Shown piece after piece: positions 15,114-19,898 of a stretch of DNA of 42,242 nt. The stretch is taken from sequence record PX871047.1; one strand, 5' to 3'. Position 1 is the stretch's first letter. Every line of letters starts with the position of its first letter. The notes beneath the pieces are model-generated. The model searched no databases, had not been told where the DNA came from, and saw only the letters and a list, made by a program, of their open reading frames with translations. Position numbers and translations under genes: made by a program. The stretch is from a phage.

Positions 15114-15526
15114 TGGGCTACTTTGAGGACTTAACAAAAGCGTTTGACGTGCCGCTGGTATCGTTCGGAACCGCCAACGGCATCAAGGTTGCGCTTGAAA
15201 ACATCGACGCGCCAACGTCAACCAATACCCCGTATCTGGCAAGTTACATGTTGCTCGCTGATACGGAGCAGGCGGATTTGTTCTTCACGGAACAACGCTC
15301 AGGTGTTTATCAGGTCGACATTAACTACGCATCGGTGAAAGGTAGCGCGCCAATCAATAAAATGGCAGACTTACTTAACACGGCATTCAAAGCAGGTAAG
15401 TCATTTTCACGTAACGACATCTGCGCCGAGGTTCAATCGGTTAGCCTGGGGCCACTGATTGTAGAAAACGGATGGGCCAAACGACCATTGTCAATTAACT
15501 TTATTGCATTCACCAAGAGGCTGTGA
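15110..15526 (+). CDS. tail completion/terminator protein (putative)
   Basis: Track ORF immediately before major tail gene. Confidence 0.4.
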   Translation: MMGYFEDLTKAFDVPLVSFGTANGIKVALENIDAPTSTNTPYLASYMLLADTEQADLFFTEQRSGVYQVDINYASVKGSAPINKMADLLNTAFKAGKSFSRNDICAEVQSVSLGPLIVENGWAKRPLSINFIAFTKRL

Positions 15527-16695
15527 ATATGGCTACAACTCCTTTTAAGGGCGCGAATACCGCGCAATTCTATGTGGCGGAAGTGACCCCGGGCGTAACA
15601 CCAAGTAACCCGGTATGGTCGCCGTTGCGCAACACTGGCGGCGTTCCTGCGGTAACCCGCGATGCGCTGACCTCCAACGAACTGGACGGCAGCCGTGAAA
15701 CTACGTCCATCCGCACTGGTAACAAGCAGGTCAGCGGAGAGTATGCCATTGAGCTTAGCTCCCGTAGTCAGGATGATTTCCTCGCTGGTGCGATGACATC
15801 TACGTGGCAGGATGGGGTAGAGATTACGGGTGCAGAAATTACGGTCGCCCCCGTAGGTAAAACATTCACCCGCGCCGCTGGTAGCTTCATTACCGACGGT
15901 GTAGAAGTTGGCGACCTGATTGCGTTCACCGACTTAACCGGCGACAACGCAAAACCGTTTATCGTGACCGCGGTTTCTGCTCTTGTAGTTACGGGCGCGG
16001 GCATTCAGCACACGCTGACAGCAGAGACTGTAACCACCGACGCTAAAACCGGCGACAAACTGGAAACCGGTAACGCATGTAAGACGTTCTCCATCCTGAC
16101 ATGGTTCAAAGGACAGTGCGGGAACCCTGACGCGTACATGTTGACCAAAGGCGTGGAAATCTCCGGTTTCACCATTGAACAGGCCGTAAACGCGATGGTG
16201 ACAGGCAGCTTCCCGTTCATCGGTCTGAGTCAGGAAATTCTTTCCACACCGCCAGCAGGTTCTGATTTCTCTCAGGTGACGTTTACTGATGAGCCGTTCT
16301 CCTCTGTAGATGTGTCTGTGTTCGACGGTTCTACGCCGTTGCGTTGCGATACTCTGACCATCACCAACGACAACGGCGCATCTGCTCAGTTCGAACTCGG
16401 CAACAGCAGCGTTGCGTTCGTGGAACGAGGTCGCGCGGCTAACACCTTCTCCATCTCCGGCAAGCTGTACGACATGGCGATGATTCAGAAGTTTATCAAC
16501 GAACAGCAGGTAGAGATTAACTCTATTCTGGCGGGGGTAAACGGTGCTATGTCTTTCAGTTTGAAACGTGCCGAACTTACGGCGGTCACACCAGAAATAT
16601 CTGGCCCGGAATCAATTACCCAAAGTATAGAAGGGCAGTCCACAGGCAATCAGTACCAGTCGTCTATTGTTATCCAGCGTATCACCTACGCATAA
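15523..16695 (+). CDS. major tail protein (putative)
   Basis: 390-aa ORF, last gene before terminator, upstream of chaperone/tape-measure genes. Confidence 0.5.
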   Translation: MNMATTPFKGANTAQFYVAEVTPGVTPSNPVWSPLRNTGGVPAVTRDALTSNELDGSRETTSIRTGNKQVSGEYAIELSSRSQDDFLAGAMTSTWQDGVEITGAEITVAPVGKTFTRAAGSFITDGVEVGDLIAFTDLTGDNAKPFIVTAVSALVVTGAGIQHTLTAETVTTDAKTGDKLETGNACKTFSILTWFKGQCGNPDAYMLTKGVEISGFTIEQAVNAMVTGSFPFIGLSQEILSTPPAGSDFSQVTFTDEPFSSVDVSVFDGSTPLRCDTLTITNDNGASAQFELGNSSVAFVERGRAANTFSISGKLYDMAMIQKFINEQQVEINSILAGVNGAMSFSLKRAELTAVTPEISGPESITQSIEGQSTGNQYQSSIVIQRITYA

Positions 16696-16700
16696 AACTA

Positions 16701-16723
16701 AGGCCCCGAAAGGGGCCTTTTTC
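16701..16723. terminator. bidirectional intrinsic terminator
   Basis: AGGCCCC / GGGGCCT stem, GAAA loop, TTTTCT; near-identical to terminator at 29235. Confidence 0.7.
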
Positions 16724-16900
16724 TCACTCACTTTTGAATGGCATTTCGTAGAAGTTAGTTAACTGACCTCTGTCACTCCGTTCTGTCATCTCTTTTGTCG
16801 CCTCTTCCTTGCTACCTACGGCGTAAATATCAACCCACTCATCCCATTCTTCGTCATATACGCGGATAACGTATATTGCCCCCATTGTGCCTTCACGCAT
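16724..16900 (-). CDS. hypothetical small acidic protein
   Basis: Last gene of reverse-strand island; track ORF 16724..16930 begins at TTG; internal ATG 16900 chosen, start uncertain. Confidence 0.4.
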   Translation of the reverse strand: MREGTMGAIYVIRVYDEEWDEWVDIYAVGSKEEATKEMTERSDRGQLTNFYEMPFKSE

Positions 16901-17462
16901 TTGGGTAAATCCCCAGGATTCTATTGGCAACCGTGGCCGCGGTTAATGTAATCTCACCAGGAATGATGGCGACGTCATGGCATACTACCCCATCAATATC
17001 GTACAGGTAGCCACGGCTATCCCCGTCAAACGTGTAGCCGTCTCGGTGCAAGCGGACGATTCGCACGTCATGCCCAGCGGCGACGATAGGGGCAACTTCA
17101 CTGGCAAACCCACCGTCGGACACCACAAAAACTTCGTCGCCGTCAGGCAAGTTTTCAGCGAGATACTTACCGAAATAATCATTGCCAAGTACAGGCTTAA
17201 TGAATTGCTCCGAGATAGCAATCATGAACTGACGTCGCGACAACCCATTAAGGAAACATTCTGGCTTTTCTTTCCGTGCCCGGTCGTCGTAGCCGTCGAG
17301 AAATTCGTGGTAAGCATCCGGGCCTAACGCTGCCCGAGCAATATTGAACATTGGATTCTTGAAACTGGTAGTTCCTTTCGCAAAGCCCATTTCTACCATC
17401 GCCATAGCAAGCGTGTCTTTCCCGCAACCCGCAGGGCCATTAAGGATAATTACCTTAGCCAT
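16893..17462 (-). CDS. P-loop nucleotide/polynucleotide kinase-like protein
   Basis: Walker A GPAGCGKDT near N-terminus; start overlaps stop of upstream phosphatase gene. Confidence 0.6.
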   Translation of the reverse strand: MAKVIILNGPAGCGKDTLAMAMVEMGFAKGTTSFKNPMFNIARAALGPDAYHEFLDGYDDRARKEKPECFLNGLSRRQFMIAISEQFIKPVLGNDYFGKYLAENLPDGDEVFVVSDGGFASEVAPIVAAGHDVRIVRLHRDGYTFDGDSRGYLYDIDGVVCHDVAIIPGEITLTAATVANRILGIYPNA

Positions 17463-17947
17463 TATTTATTGCTCCCGTGTGATTTTAAGTGTGTAGAGTT
17501 CCCGTTACAGTCGTATTCAGTAACCGCGTGCGTAGTGACTCCTAAGCCGCGGAAATGCTTAATCACCGCGGGCGAGTCGTCGAATGCGCACAATATTCTC
17601 TCCAGCCCGATAGCACGCAACACCTCTTCTTTAATTACGATGTCTTTTCTGTTGTCGTGTTTGCTGCGCATGATTAGCTGATAAAATTCGACGCGGTGGC
17701 GCTGCAGCCACATTCTGGTTTCTTTTTCTGCATCATCACTGCGGCCCGTTAAAATAATAACGGCATAGCGACGATTAAGGGCGTTACACAGTTCGATGTT
17801 ATCTTTAATGGGCGCGTCATCTTTGCAGGCCATGTTAAAAGGCTTCCACGCCCATGTTTCGTTGTAGTTATCTTTCGGTAGCAGGTGTAAACGATGAGTA
17901 CCGTCCGCCAATGTCCCGTCTAAATCGAAAATCACAATATCTTTCAT
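17462..17947 (-). CDS. HAD-family phosphatase, T4 polynucleotide kinase-phosphatase phosphatase-domain-like
   Basis: N-terminal FDLDGTLA (DxDxT) motif; later TGR...DNRKDIVIKEEV block recalled as similar to T4 Pnkp phosphatase domain. Confidence 0.55.
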   Translation of the reverse strand: MKDIVIFDLDGTLADGTHRLHLLPKDNYNETWAWKPFNMACKDDAPIKDNIELCNALNRRYAVIILTGRSDDAEKETRMWLQRHRVEFYQLIMRSKHDNRKDIVIKEEVLRAIGLERILCAFDDSPAVIKHFRGLGVTTHAVTEYDCNGNSTHLKSHGSNK

Positions 17948-19074
17948 CCCAGCATCTCCGGTGAAATAGTTAAACGTGCAACCTCACCATATTCGGCGCT
18001 ATAAGTAATTACATTTGCACTGCGCCCTGACATCCAACCGCCGCGTGAGGCATAGGCGTCTTTAGCCGCTAAGGTTCGGTGTTGCTCAACAATCATGTTA
18101 CGGCTTTCTACAATCTTCTGATGGTGCAGGTGGCCTACGTGGGCGTAGCTGTAAACACTCTCTCCGAACGCTTTGCGGAACTTAGCAATCATTACCGGTT
18201 CGATAGCGTCGAATCGTGCTTTATGCCCGTGATGGAAGAACAGCGTCGTTTTGCCGTGTTGCACCATCTTGTAAACATCCGGCGACGTATCGACGAACAC
18301 ACGAGGCTCATTGTCGTACAGCGTGCTGAACATCTCAGCCAGCCAAATCATTCCGCTTTCGTCGTGGTTCCCTTGCACGATAAGCAAGCGAACATTTTTA
18401 TGCTTAACGAGTGCCATATCAACAACACGGCGGACCATACGAATCATGTAGCGGACCAGTTTCTGATAGCGCGTGTCCGCGTCAAGAACATGACCACTCG
18501 CTGGCGTAACCGCATCCAGGCTATCGAAGTGTGCAAGGTCACCTAGCAGATTAATAACACCCGTTCCTGCATCCGGCGCTTTCTGAAACGCAGCATCGAA
18601 CCAGCGAGAGAACAGGTCTTCCGCAATCTTCATATCCCAGTCGTCGCCGCTCTCGTCGGCCCAGGCCAGCATACCGAGATGGAAATCAGACACAGTGTAA
18701 AGGTTGAGTAGTTTATCGTCGCGTTTAGCGCGGGCGGCTTTAACAGGCGCAACTGGCGTAATCTCTGACTTCATGCCTTCGATTACGGCTTTCATCAACT
18801 CGACCTGACGTTCGGCGTCAGTGTCTGTCTTAACCCATTGCAACTTAGTGTTGCCGGACTCATCCACCAGGGACGACGTCCCTTTAATCTTGTAGCCGTC
18901 AGGAACAAGGTGACTAACGTCACGCCCGTGACCCACGCCTTTCTTGGCCAGCTTCGCTTTACGGATACGAATAACGCGGTCTGAGATGCCGTATTTACGG
19001 GCAATGTCGATATTCTTCATCCCGGCGTTCAATTCTTCCTGTAACTGTTCGTCGGTTATTTTCTTCCGGGCCAT
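17944..19074 (-). CDS. HTH-domain calcineurin-like metallophosphoesterase
   Basis: N-terminal HTH-like NIDIARKYGISDRVIRIRK; metallophosphoesterase motifs DFHLG, GDLAHFD, GNHD, HHGH, GHLHH. Confidence 0.6.
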   Translation of the reverse strand: MARKKITDEQLQEELNAGMKNIDIARKYGISDRVIRIRKAKLAKKGVGHGRDVSHLVPDGYKIKGTSSLVDESGNTKLQWVKTDTDAERQVELMKAVIEGMKSEITPVAPVKAARAKRDDKLLNLYTVSDFHLGMLAWADESGDDWDMKIAEDLFSRWFDAAFQKAPDAGTGVINLLGDLAHFDSLDAVTPASGHVLDADTRYQKLVRYMIRMVRRVVDMALVKHKNVRLLIVQGNHDESGMIWLAEMFSTLYDNEPRVFVDTSPDVYKMVQHGKTTLFFHHGHKARFDAIEPVMIAKFRKAFGESVYSYAHVGHLHHQKIVESRNMIVEQHRTLAAKDAYASRGGWMSGRSANVITYSAEYGEVARLTISPEMLG

Positions 19075-19112
19075 GCTTATGTCCTCATGTGTAGGATTTG
19101 TCCTATACTAGC

Positions 19113-19304
19113 TTACTTCTCGTTAACATTCGAGTTGCAAGCCCAGATTAAAATAAAGACCCACGGCAGCAGAGCCCAGCCAAGAAACAGGTTAGCCATG
19201 AATATTGCCAACTTCGCTTTATGGCCACGCATATGGGCTACTAAAAACGGGATAAAATAAACTAAAACGATAATGATTAAGAAGAACATAGTAATGCCAG
19301 TCAT
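19113..19304 (-). CDS. superinfection-immunity-like small membrane protein
   Basis: Two TM segments with RGH...NLFLGWALLPW pattern; AGGAGC RBS; first gene after promoter 19346-19374. Confidence 0.5.
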   Translation of the reverse strand: MTGITMFFLIIIVLVYFIPFLVAHMRGHKAKLAIFMANLFLGWALLPWVFILIWACNSNVNEK

Positions 19305-19481: not shown

Positions 19482-19898
19482 ATGAAACTTTCTGATTTTT
19501 ATTACGAAGCTGAGGCAGAAAAAGGCGCCCGTATGCCGATCCCACTGAAAGACGGCACCGATTCAGGGGAGTGGCTGAACGTTGTTTCACCGGAGGCAGA
19601 CGTTGCCGTTAAAGCTATGAGGGCGTTTACACTTGCGTACCGCGCGGCATTAGGTAAATTGAAACCGCTTCGTGATAAATGCGAGGAACTGAAAGATTTC
19701 TCGGAATACAATATCAAGATGGAAGACGCCGCAACGGACCTTAACCGCCAGTTAGCGCTTGAACTGGTTAACGGTTGGAGTCTCGACGATGAATTTAATA
19801 AAGAGAACCTAAATACTCTTTTCTCACAATATACACGACTCGCTGAACACGTTGTTGTTTTCCACAATGAACAGCTACGCCAATTGCAGGAAAAGTAG
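19482..19898 (+). CDS. tail assembly chaperone (G-like, putative)
   Basis: Acidic 138-aa ORF directly upstream of tape measure; followed by -1 frame ORF. Confidence 0.45.
   Translation: MKLSDFYYEAEAEKGARMPIPLKDGTDSGEWLNVVSPEADVAVKAMRAFTLAYRAALGKLKPLRDKCEELKDFSEYNIKMEDAATDLNRQLALELVNGWSLDDEFNKENLNTLFSQYTRLAEHVVVFHNEQLRQLQEK

Follow-up and report, generated by a model that had tools for sequence, protein, structure and literature searches.

The cassette described here lies on the minus strand, within the block of tail genes of a Kagunavirus-like siphophage, and it is centred on two small genes, one for a HAD phosphatase and the other for a P-loop kinase (Table 1, where positions are those of the window, that is, the whole stretch of 42,242 nucleotides that was analysed). 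A sequence-only reading of this DNA had presented them as separate ORFs with overlapping start and stop, and this is indeed how they are arranged. Their matches in Pfam and PHROG, detailed below, together with the size of their families in tblastn searches (1,863 phage records for the HAD phosphatase, 1,531 for the kinase), identify them as real genes, not chance ORFs.

Table 1. Features of the cassette and of its borders
Feature	Position	Strand	Size or remark
HAD phosphatase, stand-alone, T4 Pnkp phosphatase type	17462..17947	-	161 aa
P-loop kinase, T4 gp1 / T5 Dnk type, divergent branch of the family	16893..17462	-	189 aa
Calcineurin-like metallophosphoesterase with N-terminal helix-turn-helix (HTH), upstream operon partner	17944..19074	-	376 aa
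Small superinfection-immunity gene, head of the same minus-strand block	19113..19304	-	63 aa; phrog_1039 'immunity to superinfection', E 3e-23
68-aa ORF, 38-nt overlap with the 3' end of the kinase gene	16724..16930	-	from the ORF list
GC-rich hairpin, likely bidirectional terminator	16700..16719	.	consensus match only

The HAD gene comes first on the coding strand, before that of the kinase, and direct reading of the sequence TAATG at 17460-17464 shows that the stop codon TAA of the former and the ATG of the latter have one base in common. The end of the metallophosphoesterase gene overlaps the start of the HAD gene by 4 nt (ATGA), and the order on the minus strand is HTH-metallophosphoesterase, HAD, kinase. 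Judging from these junctions, the three genes belong to one operon and are predicted to be translationally coupled. The superinfection-immunity gene keeps its strand and position in the relatives, while homologs of the 68-aa ORF were seen in the closest relatives only (L001, L004-L007) and the ORF itself is without match in Pfam, PHROG, NCBIfam and PADLOC. The hairpin, AAGGCCCC-TTTC-GGGGCCTT, has 8 pairs, 6 of them G-C, with T-runs on either side, on both strands; as a predicted terminator, it likely closes the minus-strand cassette on one side and, on the other, the tail-tube gene that converges on it. A scan for promoters gave no excess of sites over shuffled sequence, and we therefore claim none. 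Reading the cassette as a defence or anti-defence device was rejected, none of its five proteins (0/5) having matched a defence-system model of PADLOC.

The HAD protein begins MKDIVIFDLDGTLADGTHR and carries the motifs TGRSD and DNRKDIVIKEE. It matches phrog_415 (E 6.5e-66) as well as the Pfam family HAD_PNKP (E 4e-19), and its profile comparison with T4 PseT gave 97.6% over 134 columns, the alignment covering the whole phosphatase domain of that enzyme (PseT 162-300; PDB 1LTQ, 5UJ0). Capnocytophaga Pnkp1 (4XRP) is also close, identity to it and to T4 Pnkp being only 27-31%, and the signature RKDxV(I/V)KEE is common to the HAD protein and PseT. In the alignment D8, D10, R19, R69, D102, D123 and D124 correspond to D165, D167, R176, R213, D254, D277 and D278 of PseT, and none of the seven varies among 28 homologs; the T4 Pnkp residues are reportedly essential, according to mutagenesis in the Shuman laboratory. 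The protein thus has the features, DxDxT included, of the 3'-phosphatase domain found in T4 Pnkp and, once its structure had been predicted with AF2, it proved to be closest to polynucleotide 3'-phosphatases in structure as in sequence. The resemblance to this domain that had been noted from the sequence alone is therefore borne out. The match to Pfam NT5C (PF06941), at 20.3 bits and E 5.5e-4, stays below the cut-off of 24.8, and neither this family nor fold comparison places the protein among the 5'(3')-deoxyribonucleotidases of the NT5C or mdN type. Public records mostly name it 'polynucleotide kinase', and yet it holds no kinase domain. Whereas T4 Pnkp fuses kinase and phosphatase in one polypeptide, the window has them in separate ORFs, and among the homologs listed for each of the two (the top 120) none is a HAD-kinase fusion.

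The kinase, the P-loop of which reads NGPAGCGKDT, belongs to phrog_139 (E 9e-46), the PHROG that also receives T4 gp1 (1.8e-65) and T5 Dnk (1.4e-51), the enzymes of PDB 1DEK and Pfam DNMK (PF21448). Comparison of profiles with hhalign gave 86% over 75 columns with gp1, and 96.2% over 60 columns, at E 2e-9, with Dnk. A GxxxxGKD-T P-loop followed by FKxP, which is written (F/A)(K/G)xP across the family, is common to gp1, Dnk and the window's kinase, and D16, in the GKD of the P-loop, is invariant among homologs. Searched with a profile HMM of the kinase family, the PDB sequences gave AAA+ ATPases and adenylate kinases, matched over the P-loop only; as this search was uninformative, we used structure prediction, which yielded a gp1-like fold across the whole protein. 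Like gp1 and Dnk, the kinase is a small stand-alone protein found in DNA-metabolism contexts of phages, and its divergent homologs adjoin ThyX, or dCMP deaminase with DUF4406, or DNA polymerases. It is nevertheless about 50-60 residues shorter than these two enzymes (189 aa versus 241 and 250), it is only 18% identical to gp1, and it has no match to DNMK at E <= 0.1, a model that T4 gp1 reaches with 358 bits and T5 Dnk with 43 bits. We can therefore understand it as a distinct branch of the gp1/Dnk family, the acceptor of which could differ. This branch has invariant motifs of its own, SDGGFxxE and RxxRxGxxFxGDSRxY; R77, R140 and R150 are invariant among the homologs and R137 is kept in at least 90% of them, as expected if these arginines formed a candidate site for a phosphate-bearing acceptor.

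The window's kinase has no match to Pfam AAA_33, for which T4 PseT scores 82 bits, its profile aligns with that of PseT over 25 columns that cover the P-loop only (hhalign), and that loop carries GKD where PseT has GKS; the AAA_33-like domain with GxxxxGK[ST] and a downstream general-base Asp, typical of Pnk-type kinases, is not what we find. As the kinase is not of the Pnk type, there is no support for the proposal of a Pnkp that was split and permuted, and the alternative that had been offered with it, a dNMP kinase within a nucleotide-metabolism pair, becomes the better-supported reading. The proposal was to fall if the kinase went to the dNMP kinases and the phosphatase to the 5'-nucleotidases: the former is what happened, whereas the phosphatase remains outside the NT5C-type enzymes.

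The metallophosphoesterase upstream matches phrog_704 (E 1e-167) and is publicly annotated as 'DNA repair exonuclease', with weak Pfam matches to Metallophos/Metallophos_2 and to GerE. Its motifs D130-x-H132, G178-D179, G235-N236-H237, H282 and G314-H315-x-H317 are invariant in 12/12 diverged homologs. The matches listed in the homolog search were all at least 97% identical. Searches of the PDB with phmmer and with a 12-sequence profile returned weak HTH matches only, and we assign the protein to no characterised branch. Besides Dmp and Dnk, T5 encodes a metallophosphatase with a part in host-DNA degradation, A1; this protein was considered as a homolog and rejected (hhalign 6.9%, different PHROGs). 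A conserved core made of a metallophosphoesterase and the kinase was likewise rejected, the kinase-adjacent phosphoesterases of Vp670 and L002 not being homologous to that of the window.

The association of these genes extends well beyond the present genome. Among 80 kinase loci from viral contigs, 63 have a HAD homolog 2-2173 nt upstream of the kinase and on its strand, and the order HAD then kinase is kept in every one of these 63/63 co-occurrences, at identities down to about 45%. At 25/80 loci a metallophosphoesterase homolog stands directly upstream of the pair, and identities of the proteins there go down to about 41-50%. The kinase does not depend on the HAD phosphatase, since the latter is absent at 17/80 loci and in all five of the more distant contexts examined, and alleles of the two genes have been shuffled independently among Kagunavirus genomes. 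In the T1-like phages (Drexlerviridae), the block, an account of which is given in PMC13164509 and PMC11447400, has the same gene families in the order metallophosphoesterase, HAD, kinase, kept at about 45% identity, the proteins being 41-62% identical to those of the window. The three genes are contiguous, overlapping and antisense within the tail-gene block in Kagunavirus, whereas many T1-like genomes have 0.1-2.2 kb of small ORFs between HAD and kinase, and many have no metallophosphoesterase within 10 kb. [quoted passage not shown] A role of the gene block in nucleotide supply has thus already been noted in the literature as likely, and there is nothing here to surprise the specialist.

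What the analysis shows is to which families and folds the proteins belong, that their catalytic residues are conserved, how the operon is built, and that the gene order is maintained across diverged phages. On balance, we think it probable that the metallophosphoesterase, HAD and kinase genes form a deoxynucleotide-supply operon, and not a split RNA-repair enzyme. The metallophosphoesterase, a putative DNA nuclease or phosphoesterase, may generate breakdown products from DNA. Using the aspartyl-phosphate mechanism of DxDxT enzymes, with D8 as the nucleophile and D10 as the acid/base, the HAD phosphatase would take 3'-phosphates off such products, be they 3'-phosphorylated ends, 3'-dNMPs or deoxynucleoside 3',5'-bisphosphates. 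Relieved of their 3'-phosphate, the bisphosphates would become 5'-dNMPs and feed the kinase, the putative activity of which, with ATP, would convert them to dNDPs, and the NDP kinase of the host would then provide dNTPs for phage DNA synthesis. We infer these substrates from relatives that are 18-31% identical to the operon proteins, and the logic of the pathway and the role of the metallophosphoesterase are to be taken in the same spirit. It must be emphasized that we know of no established role for a 3'-phosphatase in dNMP salvage, and that nucleases of the Mre11/SbcD type leave a 5'-phosphate and a 3'-OH, so that a 3'-phosphatase would not be needed, which counts against salvage.

An account that we consider rather unlikely, while keeping it in mind, would have the pair control the dNMP pool in a push-pull manner. 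The HAD protein would be a 5'-deoxynucleotidase akin to T5 Dmp, destroying some dNMPs while the kinase commits others to dNDPs, and the dNTP pool would be reshaped, not merely salvaged. Dmp, a deoxynucleoside 5'-monophosphatase that T5 encodes as well as Dnk, is matched by phrog_415 from end to end (E 3.6e-57) and keeps the motifs DLDGT..HR, TxR, KDxVxK and DD of the HAD protein; this common PHROG leaves the regiospecificity of the latter uncertain, and its weak, below-cut-off match to NT5C points in the same direction. Mutations that let phage escape the dNTP-sensing Clover defence can fall in Dmp (PMC12265719), a protein that disturbs nucleotide pools and increases virulence (bioRxiv 10.64898/2026.04.02.716235). 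The direct likeness of the two phosphatases is however weak when set against that to PseT: BLASTP aligns no more than the N-terminal 48 residues, at 23.9 bits, and profiles give 26% over 68 columns, so that nothing like a full-length resemblance is seen. With 244 aa, Dmp has extra insertions and a C-terminal extension and lacks a match to HAD_PNKP, and no T5-type Dmp is recognisable among the named entries of the BFVD top 50 for the HAD protein. Furthermore, the dmp and dnk genes of T5 are dispersed and differ in timing (pre-early and early), whereas the genes of the window appear to be translationally coupled, and a general dNMPase would therefore compete directly with the kinase.

Less probable again is a role in the processing of DNA ends, where the HAD phosphatase would clear blocking 3'-phosphates at nicks and ends of phage or host DNA, for a polymerase or for host LigA. 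The upstream metallophosphoesterase might have made or trimmed these ends, and the kinase would be a mere neighbour in a DNA-metabolism block. This would be in keeping with the proximity of the HAD protein to polynucleotide 3'-phosphatases and with its position beside an HTH protein annotated as a DNA repair exonuclease; many phages have the kinase without it, and the independent shuffling of alleles in Kagunavirus argues against co-adapted partners. A mere neighbour is however difficult to reconcile with an order that never varies where both genes occur, or with their predicted translational coupling, and we know of no source of 3'-phosphate DNA ends in these infections.

The split and permuted Pnkp itself now looks improbable. 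The P-loop protein would phosphorylate 5'-OH ends of RNA or DNA, the HAD protein would remove phosphates that are 3' or 2',3'-cyclic, and sealing would be left to a ligase of the host, the whole countering ribotoxins or nucleases of the host. The phosphatase is a genuine one of the Pnkp type, its gene is apparently coupled to that of the kinase, and some T7-like phages have a kinase homolog flanked by a phosphoesterase and a DNA ligase. Such adjacency is not diagnostic, since in T7 the proven nucleotide kinase gp1.7 is encoded close to ligase gene 1.3. Besides the PseT match confined to the P-loop and the lack of an AAA_33 match, the GKD P-loop and FKxP of the gp1/Dnk family sit where T4 Pnk has the region of its general base, Asp35, and the two best-characterised structural relatives of the kinase phosphorylate phosphate groups, not hydroxyls. 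Unlike T4, the window has no Rnl-type or other ligase partner, and the kinase beside its phosphatase comes from a different kinase family. With T4 DNA ligase, T4 Rnl1 and two phage ligases as the queries, phmmer (--max) found no ligase in the complete set of 480 stop-to-stop ORFs that reach 40 aa, nor is there one among the 87 CDS of a fully annotated relative of about 90% nucleotide identity; the absence of a ligase noted beforehand, and with it that of the sealing companion of a T4-type Pnkp, holds at this sensitivity and for these query types. E. coli RtcB joins 3'-P or 2',3'>P ends directly to 5'-OH ends, so that healing of the Pnkp type would remove its substrates. More improbable still is the recruitment of a kinase of the gp1/phosphomevalonate-kinase fold as a polynucleotide 5'-kinase which, with the Pnkp-type HAD protein and perhaps the HTH-metallophosphoesterase, would constitute a non-orthologous, ligase-less healing of ends relying on a host ligase, although this would explain why the kinase family recurs beside phosphoesterases and DNA ligases.

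The significance of these observations is chiefly corrective. Hundreds of phage records give the name 'polynucleotide kinase' to a HAD protein that is a phosphatase only, and this label invites an RNA-repair reading, when the neighbouring kinase is of the dNMP-kinase type. The presence of T5 Dmp in the same broad family as the Pnkp-type phosphatases means, in addition, that this family has switched between 3'- and 5'-phosphate substrates. Phage enzymes that remodel the dNTP pool are known to trigger, or to escape, defences that sense dNTPs (PMC12265719). Host DNA is degraded and its nucleotides are reused by T1 and TLS, the nuclease behind this process being still unidentified; if the deoxynucleotide-supply reading is true, the operon would be a compact candidate for the recycling of host DNA in T1-like and related phages (PMC11447400).

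Both open reading frames of the sequence-only reading are present, on the minus strand, in a window that covers most of a Kagunavirus-like (K1G/K1ind-type) siphophage genome; 327 phage records match 16500-19300, with nucleotide identity reaching about 90% in the closest of them. They belong to a five-gene antisense cassette (16700-19304), inserted between two tail genes with the same layout in relatives, an unusual site for genes of DNA metabolism. The HAD phosphatase gene lies 5′ of the kinase gene, its TAA stop sharing one base with the kinase ATG, and its own ATG overlaps the metallophosphoesterase stop as ATGA. The 68-aa frame matched nothing in any library searched and is seen in the closest relatives only; as the kinase of most relatives (184 aa) differs in its C-terminal 25 residues or so, the junction of kinase 3′ end and 68-aa frame is a mosaic boundary. 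Counting the replication-module exonuclease and the cassette metallophosphoesterase, the phage has two distinct exonuclease-annotated genes; the former seems to be the counterpart of an exonuclease that Kagunavirus relatives carry under the name SbcD-like.

Features of the cassette, its surroundings and the replication-module exonuclease
Feature	Coordinates	Strand	Remarks
Tail-tube gene	15523..16695	+	phrog_290; flanks cassette
GC-rich hairpin, bidirectional-terminator-like	16700-16719		cassette end
68-aa ORF, acidic	16724-16930	-	fifth in cassette; overlaps kinase 3′ end by 38 nt
P-loop kinase, 189 aa	16893..17462	-	fourth
HAD phosphatase, 161 aa	17462..17947	-	third
HTH-metallophosphoesterase, 376 aa	17944..19074	-	second
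Superinfection-immunity gene	19113..19304	-	first in cassette order
Tail-assembly-chaperone gene	19482..19898	+	flanks cassette on other side
Second exonuclease, 436 aa	35442-36752	-	phrog_69; within replication module

The resemblance of the HAD protein to the 3′-phosphatase domain of T4 Pnkp (PseT), first noticed from its motifs, is borne out. It scores 69.5 bits on Pfam HAD_PNKP (PF25109, cut-off 27.6) and matches phrog_415 (E 6.5e-66); phmmer on PDB sequences retrieves Pnkp1 (4XRP) and T4 Pnkp (1LTQ, 5UJ0), and its BLASTP alignment to PseT (27% identity, E 1e-8) spans the whole phosphatase domain, residues 162-300. Among viral models, Foldseek picks out full-length Pnkp/PseT and other stand-alone proteins named 'PNKP phosphatase domain'. 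Residues D8, D10, R19, R69, D102, D123 and D124, all invariant in the family alignment, correspond to T4 D165, D167, R176, R213, D254, D277 and D278, which are reported as essential from mutagenesis. In a Kagunavirus genome paper (PMC7203180) the annotation reads acid phosphatase, with a HAD-PNKP-C domain. Its family occurs in 1,863 phage records (tblastn), often labelled 'polynucleotide kinase'; this is also the name of phrog_415, yet that group includes T5 Dmp and stand-alone HAD proteins without a kinase domain, so the name is wrong for them, and numerous genome records have taken it over.

T5 Dmp, the deoxynucleoside 5′-monophosphatase (phage T5 locus L091, 124-858), has a full-length match to phrog_415 (E 3.6e-57) and keeps the DLDGT..HR, TxR, KDxVxK and DD motifs; with the T4 3′-phosphatase also present, the broad family therefore holds both 3′-phosphatase and 5′-dNMPase. 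A 28-sequence HAD profile, however, matches PseT with 97.6% probability over 134 columns (E 4e-12), as against 26% over 68 columns for Dmp, and BLASTP gives 38.9 as against 23.9 bits. Judged by these alignments the HAD protein is far closer to PseT, which favours a predicted 3′-phosphatase chemistry; the main rival, though rather improbable, is a Dmp-like role in push-pull control of the dNMP pool. In T5, dmp and A1 belong to the same pre-early operon; A1, a predicted metallophosphatase, is both required for host-DNA degradation and enough to cause it (bioRxiv 10.64898/2026.04.02.716235). Dnk is encoded elsewhere in that genome, and the three form a functional analogy to the window operon, although A1 and the window metallophosphoesterase are not homologous.

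We consider it unlikely that the HAD protein serves as a DNA-end 3′-phosphatase independently of the kinase. Of 80 viral contigs that carry the kinase, 63 have a HAD homolog upstream on the same strand (distance 2-2173 nt, median 736 nt). In 25 of these a homolog of the metallophosphoesterase directly precedes it, and protein identities go as low as 41-54%; the kinase stands alone in 17. The linkage reaches well beyond Kagunavirus, and in T1-like genomes the gap between the two genes contains small ORFs only. When the Kagunavirus-like loci L004-L019 are compared with window 16893-19074, the metallophosphoesterase is 95-99% identical, whereas two allele classes are seen both for the HAD gene (at about 94-98% and at 82-87%) and for the kinase gene (at about 92-99% and at 81-86%). 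All four combinations occur, hence recombination between adjacent, overlapping genes, a shuffling that speaks weakly against a co-adapted HAD-kinase complex. Annotation and discussion of the pair and its synteny already exist, for Drexlerviridae under the names 'DNA repair exonuclease - polynucleotide kinase - dNMP kinase' (PMC13164509); a look through the literature for biochemical or genetic work on the window-operon proteins yielded none.

The kinase resembles dNMP kinases, not the Pnk type. No Pfam family is reached above cut-off, AAA_33 (82 bits for the PseT kinase) gives no match, and a 42-sequence profile aligns with PseT over 25 P-loop columns only; a Pnk-type identity was rejected on these grounds. 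It does match phrog_139, 'deoxynucleoside monophosphate kinase' (E 9e-46), together with the characterised T4 gp1 (1.8e-65) and T5 Dnk (1.4e-51), and hhalign extends the likeness beyond the P-loop (gp1, 75 columns; Dnk, 96.2%, E 2e-9). The three have in common a GxxxxGKD-T P-loop, then an (F/A)(K/G)xP motif, whereas PseT has GKS. Since gp1 and Dnk reach Pfam DNMK (PF21448) and the window kinase stays below its cut-off, this is a divergent, shorter branch of the family. AF2 predicts its structure with high confidence (pLDDT 92.5); R77, R140, D148 and R150 are invariant, with R137 in at least 90% of homologs, and the arginines fit a predicted arginine-rich site for a phosphate-bearing acceptor. 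The family occurs in 1,531 phage records (tblastn), often labelled 'dNMP kinase' or 'phosphomevalonate kinase'.

Comparison of both proteins with T4 Pnkp and dNMP kinases thus divides the pair: the phosphatase matches PseT, the kinase gp1 and Dnk instead. The 'split and permuted Pnkp' first proposed is very improbable and unsupported, because the Pnk-type kinase that would define it was sought and not found; the alternative offered beside it, that the pair serves nucleotide metabolism, fits best. As had been noted, no ligase is recognisable: four ligase queries gave zero phmmer matches among the 480 window ORFs, and none of the 87 CDS of a complete annotated relative is one.

Farther away in the kinase family, the homologs lack a neighbouring HAD gene and sit in nucleotide-metabolism and replication blocks (PolA - ? 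- kinase - ThyX; dCMP deaminase - ? - DUF4406 - kinase - ? - ligase; helicase - kinase - PolA; in T7-like phages, EndoVII - phosphoesterase - kinase - DNA ligase). In the T7-like loci of Vibrio phage Vp670 (L092, 4593-7556) and L002 (3982-6532) the kinase homolog has on one side a calcineurin-like phosphoesterase, or else a 336-aa ORF lacking annotation, and on the other a DNA ligase, with kinase stop and ligase start overlapping, a trio loosely like bacterial Pnkp (kinase, metallophosphoesterase, ligase). These phosphoesterases were rejected as homologs of the window metallophosphoesterase on comparison.

The latter has all its motifs intact, and its residues 1-50 form a helix-turn-helix of LuxR/GerE-like type, to which GerE (Pfam) and FixJ-type models match weakly and which is kept in diverged homologs; it was placed in no characterised metallophosphoesterase branch. 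The T4 Pnkp phosphatase accepts 3′-phosphorylated polynucleotides, 3′-dNMPs and deoxynucleoside 3′,5′-bisphosphates. What is observed are the families and folds of the proteins, their catalytic residues, the structure of the operon and a gene order that is conserved; from these we lean, somewhat beyond even chances, towards a deoxynucleotide-supply mechanism: the HTH-metallophosphoesterase may degrade DNA, the HAD protein would strip 3′-phosphates from breakdown products or DNA ends, turning deoxynucleoside 3′,5′-bisphosphates into 5′-dNMPs, and the kinase would convert these to dNDPs. Phages T1 and TLS break down host DNA and reuse its nucleotides through gene products that are unknown (TLS paper, PMC11447400). 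The metallophosphoesterase could be a DNA-targeted nuclease, and as such a candidate for the host-DNA-degrading function of T1-like phages.
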